A DNA stretch of 64,000 nt from assembly GCA_028819575.1 (NCBI GenBank), contig JAPPLB010000051.1, positions 10,978-74,977 of the forward strand, read 5' to 3'. The notes beneath the pieces are model-generated. The model was not told the origin of the DNA, did no database searches, and was given only the letters and a program-made list of their open reading frames with translations. Position 1 is the stretch's first letter; each line of letters begins with the position of its first letter. The position numbers were made by a program, and so were the translations under genes. Of the stretch, positions 10,849-43,290 are shown piece by piece. This DNA comes from Bryobacterales bacterium (lineage in GTDB: Bacteria > Acidobacteriota > Terriglobia > Bryobacterales > UBA6623).

Positions 10849-10850
10849 CC

Positions 10851-20393: not shown

Positions 20394-20500
20394 GATGGGG
20401 TTCTCCTCTGTGGGTTCTGGCTGTATGGTGGGCCAAACGCAGGAAATATGCAAGGCCCCCGGCGGAAATTGCAATCGTGTCGACCAGCAAGATGCTCCCC

Positions 20501-20684: not shown

Positions 20685-20732
20685 TCGCATCCACCCCTTC
20701 ATGCAAAGCCTTGACGTGGAAAAATACAAGGG

Positions 20733-23177: not shown

Positions 23178-24715
23178 TCGGTAAAACGGCAAGCAGCGCC
23201 GGGGTTCGGCGGCTGATAACAGTGATCCCGGTAGTCGTGATGTGCTTGTGCCTCACGTTCAGGCTCGTGGCGCAAGTCCCGTCGGACGCCTACCGGGTCG
23301 AATCCGTCCCGACGCCGAAGGGCATCGCCCCGGAAGTGAGTTCGATCTGCTTTGGACCCGACGGCCTCTTGTACGCCACATTCAGGCGCGGATACATTTA
23401 CTCGCTCGACACCGCGACCGGTCGCTGGCGGCGCTTCGCTGCGGGCCTGCACAACCCTCTCGGCATCCTGGCCGGCGGGCATGGCGAGTTCTTCGTCGCT
23501 CAGATCCCGGAGTTGACCCGAGTCGTCGACACCGACCGCGACGGCGAAGCCGACTTGTTTGAAACGCTGTCCGACGGTTGGGGGCTCTCCGGGAACTATC
23601 ACGAGTTCATCGCGGGACCCGTCCGCGACGCTGACGGCAATTTCTACGTGAGCCTCGGTCTCGCTTCCCGCGGGGCGGAACCACGGCCCCCGGTACGCGG
23701 CGAAATGACGGTTCGCGGGAGGCAGTCCGGGAATCCGGAAGAGGGCAAGGTCAATCGGGTCGGACACTACTCGCCGGTCCCGTACCGCGGTTGTGTGGTG
23801 AAGATCACTCCGGCGGGGAAACTCTCTCTGTTTGCCTGCGGCTTCCGGCAACCGAACGGATTGGGCATGAGTCCCCAAGGCGAGCTTTTTTCCGCGGATA
23901 ACCAGGGCGACTGGGTGGGAACGTCGCCGCTGCATCACGTCACCGAAAGGTCCTTTCACGGGCACCCGGCATCATTGAACTGGCATCCGGATTTCGTCGG
24001 TCGGGACCCGGTCGAGATCCCGATCGCGGAGCTGGACGGGAAGCGCAAGCGGCCGGCCATCCTGTTTCCTCAGAACGATATGGGCGGCTCGATCGCCCAC
24101 CCCGTGTTCGACGCGTCCGAGGGCGGGTTCGGTCCCTATGCGGGACAGCTCTTCGTTGCCGAATGGACCTATCCGCGAATCCACCGCGTCGATCTCGAAG
24201 TCGTTGGCGGCGAATACCAGGGAGCCGCCTTCCCGTTCGTCTATGAGAACGGCTTGCGCATGGCGAACAACCGTATGGCTTTCTCGACCGACGGAAAGAG
24301 CCTATACATTGCGCAGACTTCCCGCATCTGGGGTTCGATCGAGGGGCTGCAGAAAATTACCTGGACCGGCCGGGTTCCCATGGATATTCTGTCGATGAAG
24401 CTGACCCCGGGGGGTTTCGAGCTGACGTTCACGAAGCCGGTCGATCCGACAACGGCCGCACAGCCGTCAGCTTATTCGATGACCAGCTACTACTATCGAT
24501 ACCATGCAAACTATGGCTCTCCGAAAACCGATCTGGTCCCGGTGAAGGTCGAGAAAGTTGAACTCTCCGCTGATGGCTCCCGTGCAACCCTGACGCTGGA
24601 TCAGCTCGTCCCGGGCCGAGTCTACGACCTGCGGCCGTCCGGCATCAAGGCGGCCGACGGCGAGCCCCTGGCGGCAACGATCGCCGCCTACACGCTGAAT
24701 CGGCTCAAGGAATAG
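23174..24715 (+). CDS. Glucose/sorbosone-dehydrogenase-like beta-propeller protein, exported
   Basis: Motifs ICFGPDGLLYATFRRGYIYSLD, TDRDGEADLFETLSDGWG and DADGNFYVSLG. The proposed TTG start at 23174 overlaps the upstream TGA and gives a credible signal peptide (RRLITVIPVVVMCLCLTFRLVAQ). The start is uncertain; the track ORF begins at 23045 and ATG 23240 is another option. Confidence 0.65.
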   Translation: MIGKTASSAGVRRLITVIPVVVMCLCLTFRLVAQVPSDAYRVESVPTPKGIAPEVSSICFGPDGLLYATFRRGYIYSLDTATGRWRRFAAGLHNPLGILAGGHGEFFVAQIPELTRVVDTDRDGEADLFETLSDGWGLSGNYHEFIAGPVRDADGNFYVSLGLASRGAEPRPPVRGEMTVRGRQSGNPEEGKVNRVGHYSPVPYRGCVVKITPAGKLSLFACGFRQPNGLGMSPQGELFSADNQGDWVGTSPLHHVTERSFHGHPASLNWHPDFVGRDPVEIPIAELDGKRKRPAILFPQNDMGGSIAHPVFDASEGGFGPYAGQLFVAEWTYPRIHRVDLEVVGGEYQGAAFPFVYENGLRMANNRMAFSTDGKSLYIAQTSRIWGSIEGLQKITWTGRVPMDILSMKLTPGGFELTFTKPVDPTTAAQPSAYSMTSYYYRYHANYGSPKTDLVPVKVEKVELSADGSRATLTLDQLVPGRVYDLRPSGIKAADGEPLAATIAAYTLNRLKE

Positions 24716-24977
24716 CAGTCCGTGGTAAAAGTCCCGTGGGAGGCGCGGCGGGCTCCTGCGGTCGTTCGGCGCGGAGTGAAGAGGATGGCGATCCGGGTGA
24801 TCTCCTCCGACGAACGACAAAGCTGACGAGCGCAAATGTCCGTCGCCCGAAGGGTTACGCGCCACTTCCGTTCGGCTGTGCGCAGAGCGAGATGCCGCCT
24901 TCCTGAAGCGGCTAGACAGTACGCAATCGGTCCCGGGGCGCGTAACGCCACCTGCGTGACTTTTACCACGGGCTGCC
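24713..24977 (+). mobile_element. Family-2 TIR element, copy 2 (or a structured RNA)
   Basis: TA|GCAGTCCGTGGTAAAAGTC ... GACTTTTACCACGGGCTGC|CA. The closing helix matches at 17 of 18 positions (24716-24733 with 24958-24975). Nested internal helices include GTTACGCGCC/GGCGCGTAAC and GTCGTTCG/CGAACGAC. The TAG stop of 23174..24715 is the element's first 3 nt. Confidence 0.55.
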
Positions 24978-25065
24978 AAGCCCAATCGGCCGCCTTTGTC
25001 GCAAAACGGCGCATGCACTAAAATGAAATCTGCCCCTCGCGGGCAGTCTCACCTTTCCCTCAGAT

Positions 25066-27286: not shown

Positions 27287-27363
27287 TGGTGGGCGGTCCG
27301 AGACTCGAACTCGGGACCTCCTGCTTGTAAGGCAGGCGCTCTAACCAACTGAGCTAACCGCCC
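27287..27363 (-). tRNA. tRNA-Val (anticodon UAC), CCA encoded
   Basis: The reverse complement GGGCGGTTAGCTCAGTTGGTTAGAGCGCCTGCCTTACAAGCAGGAGGTCCCGAGTTCGAGTCTCGGACCGCCCACCA folds into a complete cloverleaf. The anticodon loop is CTTACAA. Confidence 0.92.
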
Positions 27364-27365
27364 TG
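27325..27365. repeat. attL core: 41-bp direct repeat (tRNA-Val nt 1-39 plus 2 nt upstream)
   Basis: TTGTAAGGCAGGCGCTCTAACCAACTGAGCTAACCGCCCTG is identical to 37397-37437. The flanking bases differ on both sides. Confidence 0.9.
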
Positions 27366-27419
27366 CTCTTTCCTTTCAACAACTTACACCCTTGTCTCAT
27401 GGTTCTAAATCGTGCAATT

Positions 27420-27468
27420 GTCAAGAAACTGTCAAGAATTTGCTCTAACTGGCCAGAGCCGTCAAGAA
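27420..27468. promoter_or_regulatory. Candidate arm-type integrase-binding repeats (GTCAAGAA x3)
   Basis: GTCAAGAA occurs at 27420, 27431 and 27461, with 11-bp spacing for the first two. Related GTCAAAA/GTAAAGAA motifs lie at 37254, 37262 and 37273 next to attR. On the minus strand they read TTCTTGAC(A), so they could alternatively be -35-like boxes. Confidence 0.3.
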
Positions 27469-28596
27469 ATGCGTGTCGTGCTCACCGGCCTGCCGGTCCA
27501 GCTTCGCAAGGGCCTCACGCATCATCGACAGATTTGCTTGGCTGTACCGCTTGAAAACCGCAGCGTCGGACTGCCGGAGCATTTGTGTCACGAAACGATC
27601 CGCAACACCACCAGCGCTCAAACGCGTTGCAAAGGTGTGTCGAAGCTCGTACAACGCGAAGTGCGGCAAGCCCGCCTTCTGCAATGCGCGATCCCACATC
27701 TTGCGAACAGTCGTCAAGGGCCTGCCCGTAGACGTGTTCGGAAACAGGAATTCGGAATCGAGACTCGCCCTCATCTGCGAAACGAACGCTTCGCGGGCGC
27801 GATCCGTCATCGGCATATCCGCTACTCCGGCCACAGTCTTTGAATCTGGTATGTGTATCAGTCGGTTGGCCAGATCAACCTGAGTCTTCCTCATCGGTAT
27901 CAACTCGCGATAGGGACGGAGCCCCGTTTCGCACATGATCGTGATGATGTTGCGAAGGTGTACAGGTGCAGCAGCTTCCAGTCGTTCCTGTTCCGATGCT
28001 GTCAGGACGTGCGGTTTGCGAGTCGTGCCGGACAGCTTCACGGGAAACTCAGCCCCGTTGCACGGGTTCACAAGCAGCCGCCGTTTCTTAACCGCTTGAT
28101 TCAGGATGTGTCTGAGAACACGAAACTCCTGATTCACCGTTGACGGTTTCAGCCGACTGCCCAGTCTGATGCCGAGACTCGTATGAACGCGCTTCCGGGT
28201 GTTCAGGCGGGTCCTCAAGTACACTTCTACATCGTCGGTTGTTATGTCTTGTAGTCTCTGCATACCGAATCGCGGTCTGAGGAACTTTAGGGCGTTCTCG
28301 TTCGCAGCGTGTGTTTTCGGGCTGCATGACGGCGGTTTGGATCGGTTCGCAAGGAACCAGTCCGCCCACTGGTTGAACGTGAGCAAGCCGCTCTGCTCAA
28401 CACCCGGCAGCCGACCCTCATCACGGTCCACCAATCGCCGACGCAACACCTTCTGCGCTTCGGCCTTGTCTCTCTGACCTGTCGATTCCTGTCTGTACCT
28501 CCCTTCATCGTCCCAGTAGCCCATCTGCCAAACGCTTGAATCTTTGCGTAGGTACAGGCTCCCGTTGTCGTTACGTGGTCTTCCAACTCTACTCAT
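27445..28596 (-). CDS. int: Tyrosine recombinase / phage integrase
   Basis: C-terminal catalytic motifs: GLRPYRELIPMRKTQVDL (Arg), LYELRHTFATRLS (H-x-x-R) and FKRYSQ (Tyr region). The N-terminal SAM-like domain is present. The ATG at 28596 overlaps the TGA of the upstream excisionase ORF (ATGA). Confidence 0.9.
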   Translation of the reverse strand: MSRVGRPRNDNGSLYLRKDSSVWQMGYWDDEGRYRQESTGQRDKAEAQKVLRRRLVDRDEGRLPGVEQSGLLTFNQWADWFLANRSKPPSCSPKTHAANENALKFLRPRFGMQRLQDITTDDVEVYLRTRLNTRKRVHTSLGIRLGSRLKPSTVNQEFRVLRHILNQAVKKRRLLVNPCNGAEFPVKLSGTTRKPHVLTASEQERLEAAAPVHLRNIITIMCETGLRPYRELIPMRKTQVDLANRLIHIPDSKTVAGVADMPMTDRAREAFVSQMRASLDSEFLFPNTSTGRPLTTVRKMWDRALQKAGLPHFALYELRHTFATRLSAGGVADRFVTQMLRQSDAAVFKRYSQANLSMMREALAKLDRQAGEHDTHFLTALAS

Positions 28597-28799
28597 TGTC
28601 TGATTCCTCCATCGACATGAAACTGTTTCAGCCACTCGGCCAGTTCCGACTGGCGGAACCGGATCGCGCGGCCCATCATGCGGTAGTGAGGAATCTGCTT
28701 TCGCTCAACATGAGCATACACCAACGACGGGGAGACGCACAGGTACCGCGCAGCAGTCTTGACGTTGATGAAGGGTTCGGGTGATGCTGTTACTGGCAT
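28593..28799 (-). CDS. Excisionase-type helix-turn-helix DNA-binding protein (AlpA/Xis-like)
   Basis: 68 aa. INVKTAARYLCVSPSLVYAHVERKQIPHYRMMGRAIRFRQSELAEWL matches the HTH_17/excisionase pattern. It appears translationally coupled to int. Confidence 0.75.
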   Translation of the reverse strand: MPVTASPEPFINVKTAARYLCVSPSLVYAHVERKQIPHYRMMGRAIRFRQSELAEWLKQFHVDGGIRQ

Positions 28800-29017
28800 T
28801 TCGGTCTATATCTATTATTCCCACTCCGGCTGTTAAGCATTCTCTACAAGGCGTTTTAACGTGCTTAAGCGGCGTTTCTGGTGGTAAGGCCCTTTTCCGT
28901 GCCGTTCGCCGCTTACGCGCCAGCTACGGGCGAGGTTTTAACGCATTTCGGGCGCTGGAAACAGAAAAACGGCAAACCGGATGCCCGATCTACCGTCTTT
29001 CAAAAAGAAACAAGATA

Positions 29018-29212
29018 TTAAGGCGTCTTTTTGGCTCCAATGAAACGCGGCGCTTTTCCTTCTGGTCCTTGCAGTACAAGGGACAGAATTGAGTCCGCTT
29101 GATCGTGGATCGATGTAGCCTCAAAGTCCTGGTGCCTGTTGGCCCTTGAAGTTTCCCAAACGTGTTTCAGAACAGCCCTAAAGTCGCGTACCTGTGATTC
29201 TTCTGGAAACAT
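29018..29212 (-). CDS. Small island-borne hypothetical protein
   Basis: 64-aa ORF preceded by a strong SD (AAGGAGAT, 9 nt upstream of the ATG). No recognisable domain. Confidence 0.45.
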   Translation of the reverse strand: MFPEESQVRDFRAVLKHVWETSRANRHQDFEATSIHDQADSILSLVLQGPEGKAPRFIGAKKTP

Positions 29213-29353
29213 GATTACTCTATCTCCTTCATTGCTATTATACCGACTCCGGTTATACTCCGTCCCTGTTTTTTAACCAACAGGCAACCCCAAGGTGGTG
29301 GACATAAACACGGTATCTGTAATGGGTACCGGGTTTTTCTGTGGCACGGATTA

Positions 29354-29381
29354 TTGACAACTCTCGGATTCTGTAGATAAT
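29354..29381 (+). promoter_or_regulatory. Near-consensus sigma70-type promoter candidate inside the ORF-poor island region
   Basis: TTGACA (29354-29359), a 16-nt spacer, then GATAAT (29376-29381). It points rightward toward the terminator at 29863-29899. Confidence 0.4.
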
Positions 29382-29862
29382 GATAATAGTTATCGCCGGT
29401 TTTCTGGCATAAGTCTTGCGTTGAGGGACTGCGGATCAGGGCGTAAGGCAGGCTGTGATACATAGGTGTACGGCGTATGTATCGACTGATGGGTAGTAAA
29501 GGGGTGACACCCGTACACACTTGGATCGAACGGGAGAGAGTGGTCACGCGAAGGTCGGTAACGCGATATAGTAGTCCCGCCCAATGCTCCGAACCGGCAA
29601 CGGGGAATGATACTAAGACTCATTCTACGATCAACCCTGGCGCGCTACGGCGCTACAGGGGAAGTCGATCTTTGAATGATACCCTATAGAAAGGCGAAAA
29701 CCCTGTACTATTGTTATGTCCCAGCTAATTCTTTACAGCGTTGCACCTTGTCAAGGATAACATCAGCGGTGGCCTGTTATATACGCCAGTACCAGTACTC
29801 AGCGTTTACGCTTTTGGAGTACGGTATAATGGAAACATACCCCACTACCAAGCAGTCCCAAG

Positions 29863-29899
29863 CACCCCGGTAATTCGATCTACCGGGGTGTTTTACTTT
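29863..29899 (+). terminator. Rho-independent terminator
   Basis: CACCCCGGTA-ATTCGATC-TACCGGGGTG is a perfect 10-bp stem, followed by TTTTACTTT. Confidence 0.65.
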
Positions 29900-30108
29900 G
29901 CGTGCTACTACCCGTACCGGCGCTTATATACTCGCTACTAGCCTAACGGCGCACTAGGCGGTAGCCGATGCGCCTGTATCTGTGGTAATACAATGCCACC
30001 CTATGAGGTTATATGGCATAATTAGAGCACAAACATAATCTGAAGCCATGGCAAGCGCCCATATATCAACTCGATACGTGGGCGCTTGTCTATTTGAGGT
30101 GCCAAGTC

Positions 30109-30136
30109 TTGACATTTATTGATTATCGTTTACACT
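30109..30136 (+). promoter_or_regulatory. Candidate promoter upstream of the head/packaging operon
   Basis: TTGACA (30109-30114), a 16-nt spacer, then TACACT (30131-30136). It lies between hairpins at 30052-30088 and 30159-30197. Confidence 0.3.
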
Positions 30137-30369
30137 AAGAATATCAGGGAACATAACGCCGGGTAGTGGTCTATTAACTTCTTTCCCCACTACCCGGTAA
30201 CAAGTTTTGGGAATGTAGGTTAGGTCCGCTATACCACGTAATTAGTCTGCGGTCTGGTCCCCGACAGGCTTCCTTCTTCCCATAGAAACCGGCGTATTGT
30301 ACGGCACAATGCGCCGGTCTCGTAATATGGCACCAAGAGAAACAGAACAGCTCCTGGGGACCGATAGGG

Positions 30370-31800
30370 GTGGGTAAATCAACTACGATGCATTTGAAGC
30401 CGTTTCAAAACAGGTTCATCAAGTCCAGTCTGAGACCTGGAATAGATACGGTTGTCTGTTCTCTGCCGCGTGGAAACGGCAAGAGTTTCCTAGCAGCACT
30501 ACTCGCAAAGCGCTCTATTGATCCTTCAGACAGTCTGTTTAGACCCGGTACCGAGTCGCTGCTATTCGCAGCGTCTCTGAACCAAGCACGTAGAACTGTC
30601 TACGCACAGCTACTCAGCATGGTGGACCATTCCAAGTACCGGATAGCCAACAGCGCGAACCATTGCCACATACTGCACACAGACACCAATACCAAACTGT
30701 CCGTTCTACCTTGCAATGCGAAAACCGCTCAGGGTTTGGGAGTCAACAACCCGTGTGTATTCGTAGACGAGCCCGGAGCTATGGAGACGCTAGCGGGTGA
30801 AATGCTGAACGATGCACTGACCACAGCGCAAGGGAAGCCCGGAGCGGATATGCGGGTTTGGTACTTCGGAACGCTCGCACCCAATCCTAGCCAATGGTGG
30901 GTAGACCTGGCGCTAGGCGGTTCCGATCCGAGTACCTACTGTTACACCCTACAAGCGAACCCTAAGCGATGGTCAGACCTGAGAGAGATTCGGCGTGTAA
31001 ACCCGTTGATGTACGCGTTTCCTGAGTCCAGAAAGACTCTCAAGAGCGAGCTAGACAAGGCACTATCAGATAGCCGTCTAGCCGCACGTTTCAAGTCGTA
31101 CCGATTAAACCTACCGACTGCCGAAGAGTCCACAATGCTATTGCAGGTGGAAGACTGGCAGCGCGTCTGCCAGCGCCGTGTCCCGCCGCGTGAGTCGCAA
31201 CCTGTTGTTGGTCTCGATTGCGGACAGGGCCGCGCATGGAGCAGTGCTGTAGCGGTCTATCCCAACGGACGTACAGAGTGTAGAGCTATCGCCCCTGGCG
31301 TTCCTGACATAGCCGTACAGGAGCGGAGAGACCGCGTATCTAGTGGCACGTATCAACGCCTGATTGATGTAGGTGTATTGCGGATCGCACACGGTAGGCG
31401 CGTTCCTTTGGTCTCCGATCTGGTAGAGCTAGCGGCAGATTGGAATCCTGCCGCGTTCATTGCGGATCATTTCAGGCTAAACGAGGTACGAGACGCTGCA
31501 CCCAGTAAACCGATTATCACGCGTCGTACCTTGTGGAGCGAAGCGAGCGAAGATATACGCGGATGCAGGCGGCTATGTCTTGATGGAAATATCAGCGTCT
31601 CAGACGAATCAAAGGGGCTACTACAGCATAGTCTAAGCGTTGCAAAGGTAGAGAACGACGACGCGGGAAACAGTCGATTAGTGAAAAAGAAACGGGATAA
31701 CAGTACCCGTGATGATGTAGCTTGCGCCTTTGTATTGGCAGCAGGTGTCATGAGTAGAGCTAGGGGACCGAAGCCGTTACGTTATGCAGTCGCACGCTAA
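30370..31800 (+). CDS. Phage terminase large subunit
   Basis: LKPFQNRFIKSSL followed by Walker A LPRGNGKSFLAALLA. An acidic Walker B/coupling region VFVDEPGAM is present, and the C-terminal nuclease-like part contains DDVACAF. The start is non-ATG per the track. Confidence 0.85.
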   Translation: MGKSTTMHLKPFQNRFIKSSLRPGIDTVVCSLPRGNGKSFLAALLAKRSIDPSDSLFRPGTESLLFAASLNQARRTVYAQLLSMVDHSKYRIANSANHCHILHTDTNTKLSVLPCNAKTAQGLGVNNPCVFVDEPGAMETLAGEMLNDALTTAQGKPGADMRVWYFGTLAPNPSQWWVDLALGGSDPSTYCYTLQANPKRWSDLREIRRVNPLMYAFPESRKTLKSELDKALSDSRLAARFKSYRLNLPTAEESTMLLQVEDWQRVCQRRVPPRESQPVVGLDCGQGRAWSSAVAVYPNGRTECRAIAPGVPDIAVQERRDRVSSGTYQRLIDVGVLRIAHGRRVPLVSDLVELAADWNPAAFIADHFRLNEVRDAAPSKPIITRRTLWSEASEDIRGCRRLCLDGNISVSDESKGLLQHSLSVAKVENDDAGNSRLVKKKRDNSTRDDVACAFVLAAGVMSRARGPKPLRYAVAR

Positions 31801-32065
31801 ATTGAGTTCTAGACCGTGGGCAAGACTACGCCGAAGAGTATTACAGAAAGACGGGTATAGGTGTTCGGTTTGTGGTGGAGTTAGACAGCTAGAGGTACAT
31901 CATATAATCCCGCGCCATATTGCGCCGGATAAAAAGTATCAAATTGAAAACTTACAGGTAATTTGTAGGTCCGACCATGAAGACATGCACACCAAACAAA
32001 AGATCGCGCCGGACGCATACGCTTGGCGCTTATATATGAAAGATGGAGTGAAAACTAATGAGTAA
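31784..32065 (+). CDS. HNH endonuclease
   Basis: CSVCGGVRQLEVHHIIPRHI...NLQVICRSDHEDMH carries the HNH/zinc-finger motif. It overlaps the TerL 3' end by 17 nt. Confidence 0.8.
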   Translation: MQSHAKLSSRPWARLRRRVLQKDGYRCSVCGGVRQLEVHHIIPRHIAPDKKYQIENLQVICRSDHEDMHTKQKIAPDAYAWRLYMKDGVKTNE

Positions 32066-33308
32066 TAAAACTAAGCTGGAAGTCCGGCAGCGGGAAATTA
32101 GAGCCAAGTTAGCCGAACTAAGCAACATCGAAAGTCTAACAGACGAACAACGCACAGAAATGCAGACTCTAACAAAGGAGTCTATTGATAACGACGCAAA
32201 GCTAAATGCTCTTGCCGTCACCGAACAGGAACCACAGGAAACCACTACCGATGCTGAGTCTAACGAGATCAGGGAGCTACGAAAAAAGTCTAGAGTATCT
32301 AACTACGTCGTTGCCGCTAGCGAAATGCGGAGCGTTGACGGTGCGGAACGTGAGTTCAACGCGGCTCTAGGTCTTCAACCGGGAGCATTCCCTATGGAGT
32401 TGCTAGCACCGTCTGAAGACGAAATGCGAACGACTACCGATACGGATACCACGTCTAATCAGCGCCGCTGGATTGATCGTCTGTTTAGCGCGTCTATGGC
32501 GCGTCGTATGGGCGTTTCGTTCGAAAGCGTCCCTGTTGGTCAGGCCAGCTACCCAGTTACGACTGCGGGTGCTACAGGTGCGCAACGCGGGCGAGACGAA
32601 GCGGCTACCGCTGCGGCGTGGAGTGTTGGCGTTACGGAGCTAAAGCCTACCCGGAACACGGTACACCTATCATTCACTATCGAGGATGCTGCGCGTCTTC
32701 CTGGACTAGAGCAGTCACTTCAGCGCGATATGCGGTCCGCTCTAATGGACTCGATTGATACTTCGCTTTTCATTGGTGACAACGGCGCTAATGAGAATGG
32801 CGCGGATATCACAGGGTTTAAGACTGCAAGTATCACAGAGACCACTTTGACTCAAGCTAACAAAGTCAAGGCGGATAAGATCGTGGAAGCGTACGCGGCG
32901 TTCATTGATGGTAAACACTGCGAAGGGTTTAACGAAATGAACATCGTTGCTAGCGTGGGTTCGAACGCTCTATGGCTGTCTACGGTTCATAACAGCGCGG
33001 TTGATAACCAGACTATTGCTCAGTATATGCAAGCTAGCGGTATGTCCTGGATGACACGCGGCGGCATTGATAGTGCGACTGGAAATGGCAAATTCGGCGC
33101 TTATGTTGGTCTCGCTAGGGGAATACAAGGCGCTGCGGTTGCGGCGGTTTGGAGCAATGGTACTTTGATCCGCGACCCCTATACCGACGCTAACAAGGGC
33201 GCTGTTAAGGTTACACTAAACTATTTGTGGGACTTCGGCATTCCGCGTACTAGCAACTTTAAGCGTATTAAATACGTTAGCAAACCATGCCGGGAAACAA
33301 TCTATTAG
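32058..33308 (+). CDS. Phage major capsid protein, HK97-like with N-terminal coiled-coil (delta-like) region
   Basis: 416 aa. The N-terminus KTKLEVRQREIRAKLAELSNIESLTDEQRTEMQTLTKE is typical of HK97-family capsid proteins. A Gly/Ala-rich beta-rich body follows. Confidence 0.75.
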   Translation: MSNKTKLEVRQREIRAKLAELSNIESLTDEQRTEMQTLTKESIDNDAKLNALAVTEQEPQETTTDAESNEIRELRKKSRVSNYVVAASEMRSVDGAEREFNAALGLQPGAFPMELLAPSEDEMRTTTDTDTTSNQRRWIDRLFSASMARRMGVSFESVPVGQASYPVTTAGATGAQRGRDEAATAAAWSVGVTELKPTRNTVHLSFTIEDAARLPGLEQSLQRDMRSALMDSIDTSLFIGDNGANENGADITGFKTASITETTLTQANKVKADKIVEAYAAFIDGKHCEGFNEMNIVASVGSNALWLSTVHNSAVDNQTIAQYMQASGMSWMTRGGIDSATGNGKFGAYVGLARGIQGAAVAAVWSNGTLIRDPYTDANKGAVKVTLNYLWDFGIPRTSNFKRIKYVSKPCRETIY

Positions 33309-33754
33309 TTTCTGGACCCGCAGGCGGCGGCAAGTCGCAAGCTGTCCTGGAGCTATTAAACGAGTCCGACGAAGTAACAGCGGTGGCCGACTTCCAAAGT
33401 CTGTACGCCGCTGTTGCTCAGGTTTCACGCGATCCAGAAACCGGGAAGTACCCTCTGAGGGACGACCGGCTACTACCGCTAATCGAGTTTACCCGGCGCG
33501 GAATTATCCAATCGGCAAGACGGCGCGGCATTCGGGTAATTGCGACCAACTCTGATGGCAGCCCAGAACGGCGCGGCTACCTGTTGGAACTGTTAGGGCC
33601 GGACGCAGCAGAACGGATCGTTGATCCTGGTGAAGCGGTAGCAATCGCTCGCCTAGCGTCCGAAGACGGTACGTTAGAGCCTGCCTGTAGACAAGCACTC
33701 AACAGGTGGTACACGCGACATTACCGGGACAATCCACGGAGACCACGGAGATAG
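33287..33754 (+). CDS. Small P-loop NTPase embedded in the head module
   Basis: 155 aa with Walker A LLVSGPAGGGKSQAVLEL and a basic C-terminal tail (RHYRDNPRRPRR). It overlaps the capsid gene 3' end by 22 nt. Confidence 0.6.
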   Translation: MPGNNLLVSGPAGGGKSQAVLELLNESDEVTAVADFQSLYAAVAQVSRDPETGKYPLRDDRLLPLIEFTRRGIIQSARRRGIRVIATNSDGSPERRGYLLELLGPDAAERIVDPGEAVAIARLASEDGTLEPACRQALNRWYTRHYRDNPRRPRR

Positions 33755-33758
33755 AGCA

Positions 33759-34241
33759 ATGGACGAAATTAGATGTAGTGTGGACTTTCTCCCTGACGAA
33801 ACTCGACAAGGGCCGGGACGTATCGTCGGAACCATTCTCCGTTTCGGCGAACAGATCGTACACACCAAAGGACCGGAACAGTTCGAAGCGCGGTCTCTGG
33901 CGTTCTCTGATGATGGTGTTGTGCTGTACGACTCGCACGACGTAGAGCCGCGCAAACCCGTACATATCTTTACTCCGATACAAACTGATACCGAAGCACG
34001 GATAGATGCACTACTCCCTGATACCCCAGCGGGTAGGCGGCTAGCCGAACGCTTCAGGAACGGTATATACAAGGGTTTGAGTATCGAGTTTAGGGCCGTC
34101 TCCGAACGCTATGTAGACGGCGTTAGACGCGTCTCTAAGGCGTTTCTAGGCGGCGTTGCAGCGGTAGAGTCCCCTGCATACCAAACGCCAGTTGAAATAC
34201 GCTCTAAGCGCTCTAGCAGGGAGATTTACTCATGGCTGTAG
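33759..34241 (+). CDS. Prohead serine protease, HK97 (S78/U35) family
   Basis: The His region is YDSHDV and the Ser region is YKGLSIEFRA. The C-terminal pattern LGGVAAVESPAY is typical of the family. Confidence 0.7.
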   Translation: MDEIRCSVDFLPDETRQGPGRIVGTILRFGEQIVHTKGPEQFEARSLAFSDDGVVLYDSHDVEPRKPVHIFTPIQTDTEARIDALLPDTPAGRRLAERFRNGIYKGLSIEFRAVSERYVDGVRRVSKAFLGGVAAVESPAYQTPVEIRSKRSSREIYSWL

Positions 34242-34519
34242 ACCTGACTGCCGAACAACTCAGGTCCGCTTTAAGGCTAGGTGACAGTGCTACCGAAACC
34301 GCTGAAGCGGAACGGTTGTTAACTTATGCAAAGGCTGTGATCCCTGCACGCGCTCCGGGAGCTTCAACAGTTGTACATACTGAAGCAGCAATCCGACTGT
34401 GCGCCTACCTGTACGACAAACCCTTTGCCAGTCGTGGCACGAGCTACGCTAACGCGCTACGCAACTCGGGCGCTGGGGACATCCTGTTGCCGTGGTACGA
34501 ACCAAAGGTGTCTAAGTAA
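34232..34519 (+). CDS. gp6-like head-tail connector (adaptor) protein
   Basis: 95 aa. Assignment rests on position and on the TAEQLRSALRLGDSATETAEAERLLTYAKAVI pattern of Phage_connect_1-type proteins. Confidence 0.5.
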   Translation: MAVDLTAEQLRSALRLGDSATETAEAERLLTYAKAVIPARAPGASTVVHTEAAIRLCAYLYDKPFASRGTSYANALRNSGAGDILLPWYEPKVSK

Positions 34520-34848
34520 TGCCCAAAGACTCAATCGTATTAGACCGCAGGGTAACGCTTATTCAGCCTACCGTTAGTGAGGTTAGGGACTCCTTGAATA
34601 ATCCTAAACCTGCCGATCCTATAGAGCATGAAGTATGGGCGAACCGAGAAGACACAGGCGGCAAAGAAACCGTTACTACTCGGCTAATGGTCTCTCAAAC
34701 AAACACGGTTTTTACGATCCGATACAGACAGGATATTGATAATACATGGAGCATAGTGGACCGTGGCGTTACGTTCGGTATCGAGTTCATATTAGAGGTA
34801 GGGCGGCGTCTTTACTTGGAAATACATACGAAGTCAAACAAGAATTAA
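34519..34848 (+). CDS. Head-closure / head-tail joining protein
   Basis: 109 aa. The pattern RVTLIQP...VWANRED...FTIRYRQDI...TFGIEFILEVGRRLYLEI matches the Phage_H_T_join pattern. Confidence 0.6.
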   Translation: MPKDSIVLDRRVTLIQPTVSEVRDSLNNPKPADPIEHEVWANREDTGGKETVTTRLMVSQTNTVFTIRYRQDIDNTWSIVDRGVTFGIEFILEVGRRLYLEIHTKSNKN

Positions 34849-35880
34849 ATGGTAAAAGAAATACTATCCCGGTTTGGGTACGAACGACGCGATTATTCCG
34901 ACGCCATAACCGCAGCATTGATGGCGCAAGCTAGCGGTGTAAACGTCTCTAGTGCTGCTACAAGCGCTCTCGAATCTGCCGCAGGTATCGTTGGCAGGGC
35001 ATTTGCATCCGCGAAGGTAAACGGTAAGAGACAAAATATTTTAACCCCGTTTGTTTTAATGGGTATCGGCAGATCGTTAATCAAGCGTGGGGAGTCCCTG
35101 TATCTGATTGAACCCGCTAGAGACAGCATTCAGCTAATCCCTGTTGGTGCGTACAGCATTGTTTCAGGGACATACGATCCTGCTAGCTGGCAGTACGAAG
35201 TTACGCTAGACGGCCCTAGTAAATCAATCGTTCGTAAAGTCTCCGCTGATGATCTAATCCACATTCGAATCAATACAGACCCTTCTAAACCGTGGGCCGG
35301 ATGCTCACCGGCAGACAGCGCACACCTAGTAAGCGCACTCGCTGCTAACGTCTCTCAGGCTCTCACAGACGAAGCTAGCGGGCCGCGCGGATCGTTTGTG
35401 CCGCTCCCTGGTGGAGACACTAGCGGACTCGCTACGGAGGCCAAGAACGCGCGCGGCGGGATGCTGTTGGTAGAGACCACACAAGGCGGCTACCAGTCTG
35501 GTGCCGACATTCCCAAAAGCGACTACGAGCAGCGGCGCTTTGGTGCAAACCCGCCTGAGTCGTTGGTTCGGTTGCTAGAGACTTCGCACAACCTGATGTT
35601 GGGAGCAATCGGCATAAGCGGCGCGCTGTTCTCCGCGAAGGATGCAGCTAGCGCCGTCAGCGCGTACAGGATGTTTGCTCATGCAGTCATCGGGCCGTTG
35701 GGCCAGATCGCCCAAGCGGAGCTAGCGCACAAACTCGATGATCCAGACCTGTCCCTAGACTTCAGCGACCTTCGTGCGGCAGACGTGGCGCAAAGGGCCG
35801 CAGCGTTCAAACGGCTAGTGGAAGGTGGAACCGACACGGAGAAATCGCTAGCGCTTAGCGGACTGCTCGCCAGTGAGTAG
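34849..35880 (+). CDS. Portal protein (small HK97-family type)
   Basis: 343 aa. LESAAGIVGRAFASAKV, GESLYLIEP...LIPV, WQYEV and IHIR...PWAGCSP follow the Phage_portal pattern. It is shorter than typical portals. Confidence 0.6.
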   Translation: MVKEILSRFGYERRDYSDAITAALMAQASGVNVSSAATSALESAAGIVGRAFASAKVNGKRQNILTPFVLMGIGRSLIKRGESLYLIEPARDSIQLIPVGAYSIVSGTYDPASWQYEVTLDGPSKSIVRKVSADDLIHIRINTDPSKPWAGCSPADSAHLVSALAANVSQALTDEASGPRGSFVPLPGGDTSGLATEAKNARGGMLLVETTQGGYQSGADIPKSDYEQRRFGANPPESLVRLLETSHNLMLGAIGISGALFSAKDAASAVSAYRMFAHAVIGPLGQIAQAELAHKLDDPDLSLDFSDLRAADVAQRAAAFKRLVEGGTDTEKSLALSGLLASE

Positions 35881-35893
35881 CCGTCTGACTATT

Positions 35894-36079
35894 TTATTCA
35901 GCCGGTCGCCACTCCACGGTCCTCTTGGGCCGAAACTGCTTCTCCAGCATTACATCGGCTATCTCGTAGGCGAGCTTTGCGACTCTAACGGGGTTAACCC
36001 CATCAGGGTGTTCTACCTTCAAGTCCATTGCGCTTAGCGCCTGACCAGCAAACCAGTCTCGTACACTTATTTTGTCCAT
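35894..36079 (-). CDS. Small island cargo hypothetical protein
   Basis: 61 aa with ATG start and an upstream AGGGGA. The WFAGQAL motif is common in small phage proteins. Confidence 0.45.
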   Translation of the reverse strand: MDKISVRDWFAGQALSAMDLKVEHPDGVNPVRVAKLAYEIADVMLEKQFRPKRTVEWRPAE

Positions 36080-36176
36080 CAGTTTCCCCTATCTCACTCA
36101 TCCCAACAGGTCTTCTACGGCTCATTCTCCATCTTGAGCACCAACGAACCTTTGATGAGTTTCAGAATGTATTATT

Positions 36177-36563
36177 TTACGGTCCTGAGGTAGAGTCACC
36201 GCAATCTCGCATGGCTCGGCATATGTCGCGAAGGGATTCTTTCACCCAGAATCGTACCCAAGCTATCGTCTCGCCGTCTCGAATTGTTACCTGTCGTATT
36301 TCAGCAGCCACGCCTTTCTCGGGACCGCTGTGATGCTGAATACTGAAAACATCACCTTCACAGCGATCCACTAGCTCAAGTCTCTCATTATCAGAGTATT
36401 GTGGTTTATCGCCTTTCGAAATGTTTTTTATCCACATCGCGGATTGTACAACCGTCACTAGCAGCCATCGTGGTGAAGCATCGCAGGGCTTTTTCTGTTG
36501 TGCAATGGAGAACGTTGGGGCGAGTAGCGACAAGTAGAGGGTCAATATCATGAATGGTCGCAT
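36177..36563 (-). CDS. Secreted island cargo hypothetical protein
   Basis: 128 aa with a perfect SD GGAGGA and signal peptide MRPFMILTLYLSLLAPTFSIAQQ. Confidence 0.6.
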   Translation of the reverse strand: MRPFMILTLYLSLLAPTFSIAQQKKPCDASPRWLLVTVVQSAMWIKNISKGDKPQYSDNERLELVDRCEGDVFSIQHHSGPEKGVAAEIRQVTIRDGETIAWVRFWVKESLRDICRAMRDCGDSTSGP

Positions 36564-36771
36564 GGCATTCCTCCGGGATGCGACAGATTGGAGTTGGGCT
36601 GTTTCACCCTACCATAGGTGTCAGAGCGGCCTTGAACGAGCTCATAGTCGCAGGCGCGATAGCGGTACCGGGAACGGCGCAACGTGGAACGACGGCTGGC
36701 CGGATTCGGAGTCGCCGAAGCGGCGTAGATCAGTGCCCGGGAGGCAGTCTTTGAAAATTGAAAGTCGGGTG

Positions 36772-37233
36772 TTATTTCATTTCTCCGCGATGTTCGACCA
36801 AAAGTCGTGCTGCATTCGTTTGCATCCATTGATGCAGCAATTCACTGTTGTACTGACCCACACCTAGCTTTGCCCCGGTAGTCTTGTCGAAGCGACGTAT
36901 AAAATCATTCCGTATACTTATCCGCACATTAGCTTGCTTGTCATGAGTCGCAGGGTGGATGTAGCCCTCCACAATTGCGTTCGCTTTGACGAAATCAACC
37001 GCCACTGGAGGGGGTCGTCTCCGTCCAATCCACCCCTTCAGGTCCGGCCATATTGTAGTTACCAGTAGAAACGATCCAAGCAAAAAAAGTACTACGTGAA
37101 TCCAGAGCGGATATGATGTCACCGCCATCCACCGTTTCCAGGTTTCGAAATTCTCGAGAATCTGTGGCAAGCTGATGAGTTGCAGCAAAATAGATGTACA
37201 AATTGCGAAAACCCGTCTCATTGACTGCACCAT
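36772..37233 (-). CDS. Membrane-anchored island cargo hypothetical protein
   Basis: Two N-terminal TM segments (VFAICTSILLQLISL and LWIHVVLFLLGSFLLVTTIW) and a soluble C-terminal domain. ATG lies at 37233; the track lists GTG at 37236. Confidence 0.55.
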   Translation of the reverse strand: MVQSMRRVFAICTSILLQLISLPQILENFETWKRWMAVTSYPLWIHVVLFLLGSFLLVTTIWPDLKGWIGRRRPPPVAVDFVKANAIVEGYIHPATHDKQANVRISIRNDFIRRFDKTTGAKLGVGQYNSELLHQWMQTNAARLLVEHRGEMK

Positions 37234-37396
37234 CACATCATCGCAGGTAAAACGTCAAAACGTAAAGAAACCGTCAAAATACTGCCGATAAAGTAGGGCA
37301 ATAGGGAGAAATGCGAGCGAAAGCAGACGCCCTAAAACCGCGTTAGTTGTTGTAAAACAAGGGTTTGGGTGTGAAGCATGTAAAGACACTCGGTTT

Positions 37397-37437
37397 TTGT
37401 AAGGCAGGCGCTCTAACCAACTGAGCTAACCGCCCTG
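37397..37437. repeat. attR core: tRNA-Val 5'-half fragment (41-bp direct repeat)
   Basis: Identical to 27325-27365. Only the 5' 39 nt of the tRNA are present, so this is not a functional tRNA. Confidence 0.9.
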
Positions 37438-40356: not shown

Positions 40357-40467
40357 GAAATCCAGGAGTGGGAGATGGGATTCCGTCCGGACCGAAACGA
40401 CATTTTGAATCGATACGGCTGCTTGAGCAATGCCGCAATCAGGGTTGATCCTGCCGCCGATGTTAGA

Positions 40468-41403
40468 ATGGACTCGCTTATGATTCGCTTGTTGGCCCTT
40501 CTGGTCATGGCCGCGCTGGCTCCGCTCTCCGCCGCCGACTTGCCGGCCGGCGAAACGCCGCCGGGCAAGGTGGTTCTGGTCCCGCAGCCTCATCATGACG
40601 ACCATTCGACGGATTACGGCATGGCGGGGCTGATCGCGCGCCTGGTCGACGAAGGGTTTCGCGCAATCTACATTCGGGCCAGCAACGACGAAAAAGACGG
40701 CCGCCACGGCTACCCGCGCAATGACATGATCAACGAGCGGGAGACCGAAGAGGCGATCGCAGTCCTCGGCATGGAGAAGGTCATCAGCCTCAACTGGCGC
40801 AACAACTTCGAGTCGGGATATGCGCTCAACGACCTGCGCGAGCAGTTGATCTTTCTGATTCGCAAGTACAAGCCCGACGTGATCCTCGGCCACAACGGCT
40901 GGGAGCACTATCAAAAGAACGCCGGGCACCGCAACGTGGGTTGGATGCTGGAGGAGGCCATCTTGCTGGCGGGGCTGCGCAACGCGCATCCTGAGCATTT
41001 CGAGATGGGTGTCGAGCCCCACGCCGCATCTTACTTCTACGGCAAAGCGCGTCTGACCTGGGGGCTGGGCCATCGGCCGAATATCGTGATGGAGTTCAAC
41101 GCGGACCAGCAGAGGCGCAAGGAGACCGCGTTTCAGCTTCACCGCAACGTCCGCGCCCATCCGTCGGGAGCTCGGTCTGTGCGGAGGCAGCTTGCCCGGA
41201 TGAACTTGTACGTCCCGGAATTCGAGAATCTCGACGATCAGGAGATCGCTGTCCTTATGGCGAACTGGTCCATGGAGCACATTTCACGGCTTCACGGATC
41301 GCATGCCGGAGTCGAGTTCGGTGAGGAGTACTACTTCAAGGGCGAGTTCTATGATCTGCCGGGACTCCAAGGTTATTTTGAGGAAAACATGGAAACCCGG
41401 TAG
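40468..41403 (+). CDS. Secreted PIG-L/LmbE-like deacetylase, paralog 1
   Basis: Signal peptide MIRLLALLVMAALAPLSA. The motif is VPQPHHDDHSTDYG (PIG-L-like H-x-D-D zinc motif). Start is 40468 or 40480. Confidence 0.65.
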   Translation: MDSLMIRLLALLVMAALAPLSAADLPAGETPPGKVVLVPQPHHDDHSTDYGMAGLIARLVDEGFRAIYIRASNDEKDGRHGYPRNDMINERETEEAIAVLGMEKVISLNWRNNFESGYALNDLREQLIFLIRKYKPDVILGHNGWEHYQKNAGHRNVGWMLEEAILLAGLRNAHPEHFEMGVEPHAASYFYGKARLTWGLGHRPNIVMEFNADQQRRKETAFQLHRNVRAHPSGARSVRRQLARMNLYVPEFENLDDQEIAVLMANWSMEHISRLHGSHAGVEFGEEYYFKGEFYDLPGLQGYFEENMETR

Positions 41404-41455
41404 AGTTCCCAGGGCGTGTTACAATCGGCGTCCGAGATCGTTCCGGTTGACTCTC

Positions 41456-42388
41456 ATGAACCGTTTCACTCTTTCAATCGTTCTACTGGGCATATGCGGT
41501 GTCTTGTCAGCCGCGGACCTGCCGCTTGTTGATCCGCCTCCAGGCAAGGTCTTGCTGGTGGCGCAGCCTCATCACGACGATCACACCACGGACTACGGCC
41601 TTGCCGGTGTGATTCTGCGATTCATCGCCGACGGCTACAAGGCCTACTACGTGCGCGGGACCAACGACGAGAAAGACGGCCGCCTCGGCTTTCCGCGCAA
41701 CGACATGATGAACCTCAAGGAAACCTATGATGCCCTCCGCATCCTGGGAATGGAAGATCATGTCATCAACCTGAACTGGCGCAACAACTTCGAGACGTCG
41801 TATGCGCTCAACGATCAGCGTGAGCAGTTGATCTTCCTGGTTCGCAAGTACAAACCGGATGCGGTCGCGGGTCACAACGCCTGGGAGCATTACCAGAAAA
41901 ACCCGGGCCACCGCAACCTATCGTGGAATTACGAAGAGGCCTACTGGCTGGCGGGCTATCGCAACGTGCATCCCGAGCATTTCGAGATGGGCGTCGGGCC
42001 CCATGAAACGTATCACTACTTTGGCAAGGCCCGCCTCGACTGGGGGCGCGGCCACCGTCCGAACGTCATCCTCGAGATGACCGAGGAACAGGTCAAGGTC
42101 AAGGAAAAGGCCATCCATGCGCATCAGCACGTCTATGCGAACCCCGGCGGTGCGCGCTCGACGAGAACCCGTCTGGCTCTACAGGGGCTCTACTTGCCCG
42201 AGCTCGAGGACGTCGATGACGATACGACCGCCGGCAACATGATGATCGAATGGAACATGAACTGGATCTCGAGGCGCTGGGGCAAAGAGGCGAACGTCAA
42301 GTACGGCGAAGACTACTACTACATGGGCGAGTTCTATCACCTGCCGGGTCTGAAAGAGTTTCTCGACGAGAACGTGGAGGCCAAATGA
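41456..42388 (+). CDS. Secreted PIG-L/LmbE-like deacetylase, paralog 2
   Basis: Start revised to ATG 41456 (MNRFTLSIVLLGICGVLSA). It carries AQPHHDDHTTDYG and is collinear with paralog 1 along its whole length. Confidence 0.65.
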   Translation: MNRFTLSIVLLGICGVLSAADLPLVDPPPGKVLLVAQPHHDDHTTDYGLAGVILRFIADGYKAYYVRGTNDEKDGRLGFPRNDMMNLKETYDALRILGMEDHVINLNWRNNFETSYALNDQREQLIFLVRKYKPDAVAGHNAWEHYQKNPGHRNLSWNYEEAYWLAGYRNVHPEHFEMGVGPHETYHYFGKARLDWGRGHRPNVILEMTEEQVKVKEKAIHAHQHVYANPGGARSTRTRLALQGLYLPELEDVDDDTTAGNMMIEWNMNWISRRWGKEANVKYGEDYYYMGEFYHLPGLKEFLDENVEAK

Positions 42389-43290
42389 CCCGACGCATCC
42401 TGGCGTTTGTATCCCTCATATTCCTCGCCGCTGTGGCGCCGCTTGCGGCTCAGATCGGCGAGACGAACAATACGGTCGTCGTCATTACCTCCGACGCGAG
42501 CAACTACGTGCTGCACGCCGGCGGAACGGTGGCGAAGATGGTCGAGGACGGCATGGAGGGAATCCTGATCCGCATCGGGAACGATGAGAAAGACTCCTGG
42601 GACCTGTCTCCTGAGGAGACCGCGCTGCGGACGAAGCAGGAAAGCGAGGCGGCCGCGAAGATCCTGGGCATCAGCAAGGTCATTTCGCTCGGCTTCAGGT
42701 CATCGGACTTCCGCGACGTCCCGTTCACGACGATGCGCGATAGATTGGCCTATTACATCCGGGTCCACAAGCCGCGCGTGCTGTTCATCCCGAACCCGCA
42801 CACGCAGTACGACCGCAACCATGACCGCTACTACGGCGGACGCGCCGCGGAAGACGCCTGGCGTGCGGCGGCGTTCAAGAACTATCTCCCCGCCATGAAA
42901 GATGTCAACCTGGGAGCGCACGTGACTCCGGAGGTCTATTACTTCGCTCCGCTGGTGGACCCTGCTCGGCGTGAGCCCGAGTCCACGGGGACCTTTGTGC
43001 CGCAGCCGAAGATGACCGATATCTCCGGCACGCTCGAAAAGAAGATCAAAGCCGCCCAGGCGCTGAAGACCATCAATCACAGCCTCGCAATGAGGTTGAA
43101 ACAACGGCTCGATTCCACCGATCGGCGGTTGCCGCTGCTCGACAGTGTGGACGAGGCGTCGATCAACAAGCTGGTCGAGCAGCGGGTTCGCGGTTTGGCG
43201 CGGCTTTCCGCCGAAGGCACTGACTTTCAAGCGGCCGAAGAGTTTCGCTACGCAGGGGTCGAGTACCGGATTCCGGCGTCTTACAGATAG
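42385..43290 (+). CDS. Secreted PIG-L/LmbE-like deacetylase, divergent paralog 3
   Basis: Its ATG 42385 overlaps the upstream TGA (ATGA), and SD GTGGAGG lies upstream. Signal peptide MTRRILAFVSLIFLAAVAPLAAQ. It has the same fold-level pattern (NDEKDSW, RVHKPRVLFIPNPH) but a modified N-terminal metal motif. Confidence 0.55.
   Translation: MTRRILAFVSLIFLAAVAPLAAQIGETNNTVVVITSDASNYVLHAGGTVAKMVEDGMEGILIRIGNDEKDSWDLSPEETALRTKQESEAAAKILGISKVISLGFRSSDFRDVPFTTMRDRLAYYIRVHKPRVLFIPNPHTQYDRNHDRYYGGRAAEDAWRAAAFKNYLPAMKDVNLGAHVTPEVYYFAPLVDPARREPESTGTFVPQPKMTDISGTLEKKIKAAQALKTINHSLAMRLKQRLDSTDRRLPLLDSVDEASINKLVEQRVRGLARLSAEGTDFQAAEEFRYAGVEYRIPASYR

Follow-up and report, generated by a model that had tools for sequence, protein, structure and literature searches.

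The 64,000-nucleotide stretch of DNA analysed here (positions 10,978 to 74,977 of contig JAPPLB010000051.1, assembly GCA_028819575.1; hereafter the window) comes from a sponge-associated member of the Bryobacterales and carries a precise 10,072-bp insertion in the 5' half of a tRNA-Val gene. This island encodes a complete head-and-packaging set of phage type, namely TerL, an HNH endonuclease, a major capsid protein (MCP), an S78 prohead protease, a probable head-tail adaptor, a stopper and a portal, and is probably an intact, integrated member of a family of ~10-kb head-only elements that works like a capsid-forming, tail-borrowing satellite. Such a satellite had been proposed in a preliminary description of the same DNA, which named beforehand three observations that would speak against it: close relatives with head genes contiguous with tail and lysis modules, broken head genes, and a bounding repeat that is not used for integration. 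All three came out negative in the present analysis, which supports the proposal.

The island is bounded by a perfect 41-bp direct repeat (27325-27365 and 37397-37437); a repeat search gave a spacing of 10,072 bp, in agreement with the ~10.1-kb block outlined before, and the GC content (49-56% within the island, 60-62% in the flanks) likewise agrees with the A+T-richness read from the letters. ARAGORN and Rfam (tRNA model, 76.4 bits) confirmed the insertion site as tRNA-Val, with an intact tRNA-Val(TAC) gene at 27287..27363 on the minus strand, and an Rfam search of 25-40 kb of the window returned nothing but tRNAs. The left repeat covers positions 1-39 of this tRNA plus two upstream bases (-2 to 39), that is, the 5' half including the anticodon and not the usual 3' end, and the right repeat is a displaced copy of the tRNA-Val 5' half adjoining the native upstream DNA. 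To our knowledge, elements that rebuild the 5' portion of a tRNA gene on integration are uncommon. Upstream of the tRNA-Val gene there is now island DNA, and the gene points the same way as the excisionase and integrase genes (xis-int). In two soil-metagenome loci (L071 and L076), integrase homologues (~35-58% amino acid identity over aligned segments) stand beside the same tRNA-Val gene, convergent on its usual 3' side.

Use of the repeat as an attachment (att) site was borne out by other genomes. A scan for the 41-mer recovered an empty tRNA-Val site (attB) on contig MKWU01003161.1 (L070), an accession from a metagenome of the sponge Aplysina aerophoba (PMC5649159). This contig is ~93% identical to both window flanks, and in it the tRNA-Val gene runs from the point of the left repeat directly into the sequence found from 37438 onward in the window. 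In another sample (L098/L099), a different island of 9,668 bp lies between the same two 41-bp repeats, and the host flanks next to it are ~99% identical to those of the window. The locus is polymorphic among near-identical hosts, being empty or occupied by island A or island B, and the empty site together with the second allele shows recent mobility. All the marks of a site-specific integrative element, namely att repeats, an empty site and alternative occupants, were thus found. A 10,091-nt Logan contig was considered as a possible excised circle and rejected: it equals window positions 27336-37426 and, because its ends lie 30 nt (k-1) into each repeat, represents an assembly-graph break. The att 41-mer was absent from IMG/VR. 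Flank proteins fell in 90%-identity clusters of 48-63 members, which include proteins named 'Bryobacterales bacterium' (Acidobacteriota), and island proteins in clusters of 1-3 members. The earlier guess of a host from the Acidobacteria or the Planctomycetes-Verrucomicrobia-Chlamydiae group was right in its first part, the flank-protein clusters placing the host in the Bryobacterales. Sample codes of the metagenome-assembled genome (MAG) GCA_028820545.1, a contig of which matches the window, presumably point to a coral-reef sponge study.

The integration genes lie next to the left repeat. A tyrosine integrase of 383 amino acids, read from the ATG at 28596 (27445..28596, minus strand), matched Phage_integrase (E 1.2e-19) and PHROG 1 (E 3e-60) and is 99% identical in amino acid sequence to that of L099, with five of six substitutions at third codon positions. 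It follows a 68-amino acid excisionase or AlpA-like helix-turn-helix protein (28593..28799, minus strand), which matched HTH_17 (E 8e-12) and the NCBIfam model 'excise' (45.7 bits, cut-off 28.8) and, weakly and under the cut-off, Phage_AlpA (E 0.004); in L001 and other relatives, this position is taken by a PF05930 AlpA gene. The ATGA overlap that joins the two genes can be read directly in the sequence, as had been described.

The head operon reads rightward. TerL (30370..31800, plus strand, alternative ATG start at 30388) was recognized by PHROG 9 (E 2e-39) and TerL_nuclease (E 4.6e-6), and the adjoining HNH endonuclease (31784..32065, plus strand) by Pfam HNH (E 1.5e-9) and PHROG 144 (E 4e-19), upholding both earlier assignments; the TerL-HNH pair is kept across the loci of the family. 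The MCP (32058..33308, plus strand, 416 amino acids) had no Pfam, PHROG or NCBIfam match, and its HK97 fold, as first proposed, is supported by structure prediction. An AlphaFold2 model built on 33 homologues (pLDDT 69.6) gave 250 Foldseek matches in the PDB at E<=1e-3, all of them HK97-fold capsids, encapsulins or the RcGTA capsid, and a few of the MCP homologues carry PF05065. The helical N-terminal region of ~105 amino acids looks delta-domain-like in this model.

Between capsid and protease lies p155 (33287..33754, plus strand), a P-loop protein of 155 amino acids with the Walker A motif GPAGxGKS. The P-loop NTPase of the preliminary description can be refined to a small kinase of polynucleotide-kinase-like fold, since its AlphaFold2 model (pLDDT 92.7) best matched the T4 Pnk kinase domain and Pnkp1; 234 homologues were found, 16 of 18 family members weakly matched AAA_33, and the gene occurs in about one third of the family loci, always between MCP and protease. 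Conceivably, p155 processes DNA ends at packaging or entry. The possibility that p155 and the protease are one gene split by a frameshift, raised by a relative with a 315-amino acid 'protease', was rejected, the two being separate adjacent genes in ~17 loci. The prohead serine protease itself (33759..34241, plus strand) scored 25.7 bits against the Peptidase_S78 cut-off of 21, in keeping with the S78 assignment made before, and also matched PHROG 80 and 2263.

Three more genes complete the operon. The probable head-tail adaptor p95 (34232..34519, plus strand, 95 amino acids) was assigned from its position, its size and an N-terminal domain conserved across the family. The head-closure (stopper) protein of SPP1 gp16 type (34519..34848, plus strand) exceeded both the Pfam and the NCBIfam cut-offs, as expected from the first description (Phage_HCP, E 7e-12; gp16_SPP1, 27.7 bits, cut-off 20.6), and matched PHROG 25 'head closure Hc1'. 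The portal (34849..35880, plus strand) weakly matched Phage_portal (E 4.8e-7) at a position conserved across the family; the orthologue scanned from L062 reached 57.7 bits and thereby passed the Pfam cut-off, and several others carry Phage_portal in precomputed annotations. Searches of PDB sequences with profiles of p95 and p155 were uninformative, the PPR matches of p155 being repeat artefacts.

Profile searches of the island open reading frames (ORFs) gave no tail, lysis, replication, repressor, TerS (small terminase subunit) or defence family match, as had been anticipated for all but the last of these, and the 10 kb leave no room for tail and holin/lysis genes. The core genes have the same lengths as their orthologues in L064, L065 and L099 and no internal stop. 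Their proportions of differing sites are 0.68-0.86 at synonymous positions (pS, at or near saturation) and 0.15-0.44 at non-synonymous positions (pN), with dN/dS of 0.06-0.24 where computable, as expected of genes under purifying selection that have been maintained and are not relics.

Comparison with L099 also points to module exchange. Its integrase, excisionase and the small protein o64 (described below) are 97-99% identical to those of the window, whereas the head modules are 30-62% identical (TerL 57%, portal 58%, capsid 30%), which argues that whole head modules have been swapped while the integration and control backbone stayed constant. A domesticated, gene transfer agent (GTA)-like head cluster that packages random host DNA would also be head-only and phage-derived, and RcGTA-type agents resemble the island in having phage-derived HK97-fold head genes in a bacterial chromosome, the RcGTA capsid being among the structural matches. 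GTAs, however, are fixed, vertically inherited loci without integrase or att sites that encode tails and package random DNA, RcGTA for its part encoding its own tail. The island has an integrase, an excisionase and att repeats, varies in presence between strains with near-identical genomes, lies 8-10 GC points under its host, has had its head module swapped between strains and is without tail genes; it is neither a fixed locus of that kind nor one with its own tail, and a GTA-like origin seems extremely unlikely.

The island belongs to a large family. Capsid homologues numbered 1,164 in a word-indexed search. Clustered at 50% identity, the matches of an exhaustive search formed 286 clusters up to E<=1e-30, a number that rises to 2,081 at E<=1e-3. 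A scan of GTDB representative genomes detected 54 loci with the capsid family in five phyla, namely in Pseudomonadota (Alpha- and Gammaproteobacteria), Chloroflexota (Dehalococcoidia), Gemmatimonadota/Longimicrobiales, Acidobacteriota and Binatia; many loci lie inside Mb-scale chromosomes, so the host assignments are not binning artefacts, and some genomes hold up to five copies. The head module is common to the ~60 loci fetched. Mapping of the window proteins on all loci gave the conserved order TerL-HNH-MCP-(p155)-protease-p95-(head closure)-portal, with a permuted form, MCP...portal-TerL-HNH, mainly in Dehalococcoidia. Upstream of the module stand typically an integrase and an AlpA-like gene, followed by one of several replication genes.

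The same ~10-kb unit with both its att sites recurs: beyond the window, tRNA- or tmRNA-derived direct repeats bound at least 16 further copies. Unbroken repeat-bounded copies span 9.3-11 kb, and copies of 12-13.3 kb hold extra inserted genes resembling mobile elements; unbroken members of the family are held to ~9-11 kb. Two IMG/VR contigs are circularly assembled (9,236 and 10,095 bp) and carry VapE or Replicase/PriCT genes and no integrase. None of the ~60 loci has a tail module or head genes contiguous with tail or lysis modules. What the relatives carry as accessory genes are AlpA-like regulators, primase-helicases and proteins of the neck rather than tails. When 141 accessory proteins were scanned with PHROG, the matches comprised primases, replication initiators, HNH proteins, excisionases, Neck1/tail-completion and head-closure proteins, with no tail-tube, tape-measure, baseplate, fibre or lysis family among the 25 most frequent of 107 PHROG families.

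Neither capsid nor portal had a tblastn match in 50,697 GenBank phage records, and TerL found its best matches there in the TerL of HK97-like lambdoid phages, at ~25% identity. Searched against 5,426 E. coli genomes, an Enterobacteriaceae-labelled member (L044) gave no DNA match. We found no description of such elements in sponges or in these phyla in the literature searched, and the family is apparently undescribed. Recent transfer between phyla was considered and not borne out: in 31 of 42 cases the nearest neighbour of a capsid comes from the same host class, and nearest neighbours from different phyla reach 66% identity at best, so that spread across phyla is old or rare and not demonstrably recent.

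These observations bear on whether the island is a cleanly truncated, decaying prophage remnant. Its phage-type genes beside a tRNA gene and its lack of tail, lysis and replication genes are what such a remnant would leave. A remnant would not, however, recur as a ~10-kb unit with both att sites at the other loci across phyla and as 9-10-kb circles, nor would it be expected to keep intact genes through saturated synonymous change. No relative has a tail module, capsid and portal lack a counterpart among the phage genomes, and the empty site and second allele indicate recent mobility; we find this explanation hardly credible.

Side observations on the family loci include an Alphaproteobacteria MAG (L011, 845-13603) that has five copies, including two family modules in tandem, and several loci (L021, L042, L048, L033/L034 and L039) in which TerL, portal or p155 is interrupted by insertion sequence-like or other mobile-looking genes. 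A distant TerL-HNH-MCP-protease-portal module (L102, capsid identity 24%) was found in Pseudorhodobacter turbinis S12M18, a cultured marine Rhodobacterales isolate (NZ_CP039965.1, 387335-406573), with a tRNA-Cys gene ~3 kb downstream and a second match elsewhere in the record.

Between the divergent int/xis and head operons lies an ORF-poor, AT-rich control region of 1.57 kb (28800..30369) with promoter-like sites and strong hairpins. Its ORFs had no Pfam match and include no replication or TerS gene, and ORFs of 103 and 110 amino acids are frameshifted in the near-identical L099 copy. Strong RNA structure is predicted in this region, with no Rfam match; the fold of 29385-30110 has a z score of -5.2, from 20 shuffles only. 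Against L099, good conservation is limited to a 64-amino acid gene (29018-29212) and the stretch 29425-29711. The region may be a candidate origin, regulatory RNA or cos site. The small gene, o64 (29018..29212, minus strand), comes in addition to the genes described before. It is intact and 98% identical in amino acid sequence in L099, with two substitutions, both at third codon positions, and 15 and 27 in the flanking non-coding DNA; no family matched it in profile searches. We take o64 to be a real gene; lying upstream of xis-int, it is a candidate regulator.

Ahead of the head operon, a consensus scan identified the promoter-like site TTGACA-16-TACACT (30109..30136, plus strand, 10/12 match), although the total of sigma-70-like matches facing the operon in the control region is not above chance. 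It is followed by a conserved, structured leader of the TerL operon (30159..30340, plus strand) with hairpins at 30159-30197 and 30285-30321. Over 199 nt the leader is 79% identical to that of L099 and includes long stretches of near identity, whereas the TerL coding sequence is ~65% identical; the leader is the best-conserved stretch between the diverged right halves of the two islands. Pairing in the first hairpin is kept through one T-A to C-G double change and two wobble changes, and the fold has a z score of -3.0 (200 shuffles). These two sequences are suggestive only of a role for the leader as a candidate regulatory RNA or cos/packaging-recognition site.

Most relatives carry, between the AlpA-like gene and TerL, a replication gene (AAA_25 primase-helicase, VapE, Replicase/PriCT or HTH_36 initiator), and the small genes upstream of TerL in relatives had no TerS match. 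The window copy has at this place 1.57 kb of mostly non-coding DNA with frameshifted ORFs and could thus be a crippled or dependent derivative that lost its replication module and TerS and would persist solely as an integrated island or be mobilised with low efficiency, an explanation compatible with the satellite reading. The rep-less layout recurs, however, in the diverged L065, L099 and L100, with intact head genes and saturated synonymous change, which argues for a stable sub-type rather than recent decay. Integrase, excisionase and o64 are intact, and no trace of a decayed replication gene, or other homology, was detected in 28800-30369 by tblastx and blastn against every fetched locus, except for the near-identical L098/L099. 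We consider a crippled copy unlikely.

In many relatives the p95 domain forms the N-terminus of a larger protein of ~210-1,115 amino acids with low-complexity linkers, internal repeats and no Pfam domain, for example in L017 (5653-8994, 1,113 amino acids), L063 (4615-7962, 1,115 amino acids), L059 (3484-5778, 764 amino acids), L044 (5068-6954), L030 (12177-13346) and others. The large fusions may be neck- or head-attached fibres. Their extensions of ~110-1,000 amino acids (L017, L063, L059), together with the two circular contigs that have their own replication genes and no integrase, would fit an autonomous minimal virus-like element or a self-sufficient transducing particle that enters cells without a helper tail, by capsid alone or by neck-attached fibres. 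In the window, however, p95 is the bare 95-amino acid domain and precedes a gp16-type stopper, on which a separately assembled tail usually docks. No lysis gene came up in the members examined, the p95 extensions lack recognizable receptor-binding or tail domains, and we know of no HK97-type virus this small and tail-less. Autonomy thus appears very unlikely.

The satellite reading can be set against known systems. Of the 11 components that SatelliteFinder lists for phage-inducible chromosomal islands of the capsid-forming kind (cf-PICIs; PMC10085698), seven were found in the island, namely integrase, HNH, TerL, capsid, protease, portal and connector/stopper; TerS and primase were not found, and for the remaining two there are candidates, a possible regulator (the Phage_AlpA match under its cut-off) and a probable adaptor (position and the two weak Phage_connect_1 matches in its family). 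Like the cf-PICIs EcCIEDL933 and KpCIDSM30104, the island is small and integrative, has an integrase and a candidate regulator of AlpA/excisionase type, and supplies TerL, HNH, an HK97-type capsid, a prohead protease, a portal and head-tail connectors (the adaptor being a probable one) itself, with no tail or lysis genes. Its gene order, capsid before protease before portal, had been called non-canonical; the order was observed as described, but the same order is reported for proteobacterial cf-PICIs (10.1101/2022.09.08.507074), and the permuted variants of the family come closer still to the cf-PICI layout than the island does. Unlike cf-PICIs, it lacks TerS and any primase or replication gene, has TerL ahead of HNH and the connectors placed between protease and portal, and carries an extra polynucleotide-kinase-like gene. 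At ~10 kb it is also smaller than the cfPICI median of 14 kb and the 15.4 kb of EcCIEDL933 (PMC10085698; 10.1101/2022.09.08.507074). The family has its hosts among the Acidobacteriota, Chloroflexota, Gemmatimonadota and Binatia as well as marine Alpha- and Gammaproteobacteria, the cf-PICIs theirs among Enterobacteria and Firmicutes; a further difference is that none of the three profile collections recognized the island capsid. Since cf-PICIs are reported to have arisen several times independently (10.1101/2022.09.08.507074), the family may be a further origin.

The HK97-like cos phages (HK97, HK544 and mEpX2) share with the island an HK97-fold capsid with an N-terminal helical region, an S78 protease and an HNH gene adjoining the terminase, and provided the best TerL matches among GenBank phages. 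They differ in gene order and in the low TerL identity (~25%), and the island capsid and portal gave no BLAST match; the island has no TerS, tail, lysis or replication gene and about one quarter of their genome size. Classical PICIs, including SaPIs, as well as P4, PICMIs and the marine VEIMEs, satellites abundant in uncultured marine bacteria (PMC9618062), resemble the island in being small and tRNA-integrated, with an integrase, an AlpA-type regulator (a candidate one in the island) and helper dependence, which in the island is inferred. These satellites use the capsid proteins of the helper, whereas the island family brings its own capsid, portal and terminase.

By analogy with cf-PICIs, whose tail-less DNA-filled capsids were seen in experiments to capture free phage tails (10.1101/2022.09.08.507074; 10.1101/2025.02.11.637232), the island would depend on a helper and borrow its tails. 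Upon induction, excisionase and integrase would release a 10-kb circle, and the head operon would be transcribed from the ORF-poor control region through the structured leader. Portal, capsid protein and protease would build a small HK97-type procapsid, with the protease maturing the delta-like N-terminal region of the capsid protein. TerL and HNH would then cleave the DNA, probably at a cos-like site within the leader upstream of TerL, and package it in unit lengths, and adaptor and stopper would close the head to give a tail-less, DNA-filled capsid. Lysis and a compatible tail, conferring release and infectivity, would come from a co-resident or co-occurring phage. Because the window copy and its nearest relatives have no replication gene, replication would be supplied by host or helper, or the copy would be a less autonomous variant.

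Several points weigh against this reading. Neither for the island nor for any relative has a helper phage, an induction signal, an excised circle or a particle been seen, the host genome analysed amounts to the 64-kb window, too little to seek a resident helper prophage, and no close head-closure or portal protein among sequenced phages points to a helper. The window copy has neither TerS nor a replication gene, and HK97-type packaging normally needs TerS. Its portal, one of the genes first described, scored 29.7 bits under a Pfam cut-off of 39.1. The gp6-like adaptor of the preliminary description stands as a probable adaptor, its likeness to gp6 being weakly supported: two of 18 members of the p95 family matched Phage_connect_1 (E ~0.03), and p95 had no PDB sequence match. 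The scan of accessory proteins in relatives rests on the 25 most frequent of the 107 families.

Three leftward cargo genes follow the portal. The small gene c61 (35894..36079, minus strand) and c128 (36177..36563, minus strand) have orthologues in L065 with 58% and 67% amino acid identity, respectively; c61 had no family match and c128, whose N-terminus is signal-peptide-like by eye, no Pfam or PADLOC match. The dN/dS of c128 against L065 is 0.42, and its unsaturated pS (0.38) indicates that it was more recently shared than the head genes; over the c61-c128 segment as a whole, pS is 0.38, much less diverged than the neighbouring head genes (pS ~0.84). The variable cargo gene c154 (36772..37236, minus strand) was recognized as an ORF only, with no homologue among the fetched loci and no family match; it may encode a membrane protein, to judge by two hydrophobic stretches visible by eye. 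An overlapping ORF of 93 amino acids (36548-36829) had no Pfam or PADLOC match and no homologue and was never chosen by homology-based gene picking. PADLOC detected no defence system among the cargo genes and p155.

Elsewhere in the window, an interspersed intergenic repeat family of ~190 nt has at least nine copies in the 64 kb, all of them direct (same-strand) matches and none inside the island (3716-3920, 5209-5414, 10850-11043, 13883-14099, 15609-15802, 17859-17941, 20500-20693, 45901-46100, 52506-52725 and 55098-55374); one copy lies beside tRNA-Val in the empty-site contig (L070, 11451-11645). An insertion of 264 nt resembling a miniature inverted-repeat transposable element (24716-24979), with 42-nt imperfect terminal inverted repeats (24715-24756 and 24935-24976), stands just upstream of a tRNA-Pro gene; L098 and L070, collinear in other respects, do not have it. 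Positions 40375-43290 are occupied by a tandem array of three PIG-L (LmbE-like deacetylase) paralogues with ~73-77% nucleotide identity, preceded by a sulfatase gene.

Capsid-forming satellites have so far been characterized in Enterobacteria and Firmicutes, where SatelliteFinder detected cfPICIs (PMC10085698), and the island would represent the same solution, an own head and motor with a borrowed tail. Its family, with 286 capsid clusters at 50% identity, lives in uncultured sponge-associated and other environmental bacteria of five phyla, and in standard phage and NCBI annotation the capsid, portal and terminase of the island score under the profile cut-offs or are missed altogether. A more far-reaching proposal, which we hold to be rather doubtful, is that the family forms a phylum-spanning satellite lineage separate in evolution from the enterobacterial and Firmicute cf-PICIs, of which the island would be the first representative to be recognized, with a size of ~10 kb set by its own small capsid, swapping of head modules among strains living together, a hitherto overlooked polynucleotide-kinase-like packaging accessory and adaptor-fibre sub-lineages that maybe adsorb without a helper tail. 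The distant relative in the cultured P. turbinis S12M18 offers an experimental entry point, and the three-state locus (empty, island A, island B) is usable for population studies. For the bacteria themselves, the island would be a route for horizontal transfer in dense symbiont communities, and the family would be a natural experiment on the limits that a capsid imposes on genome size.

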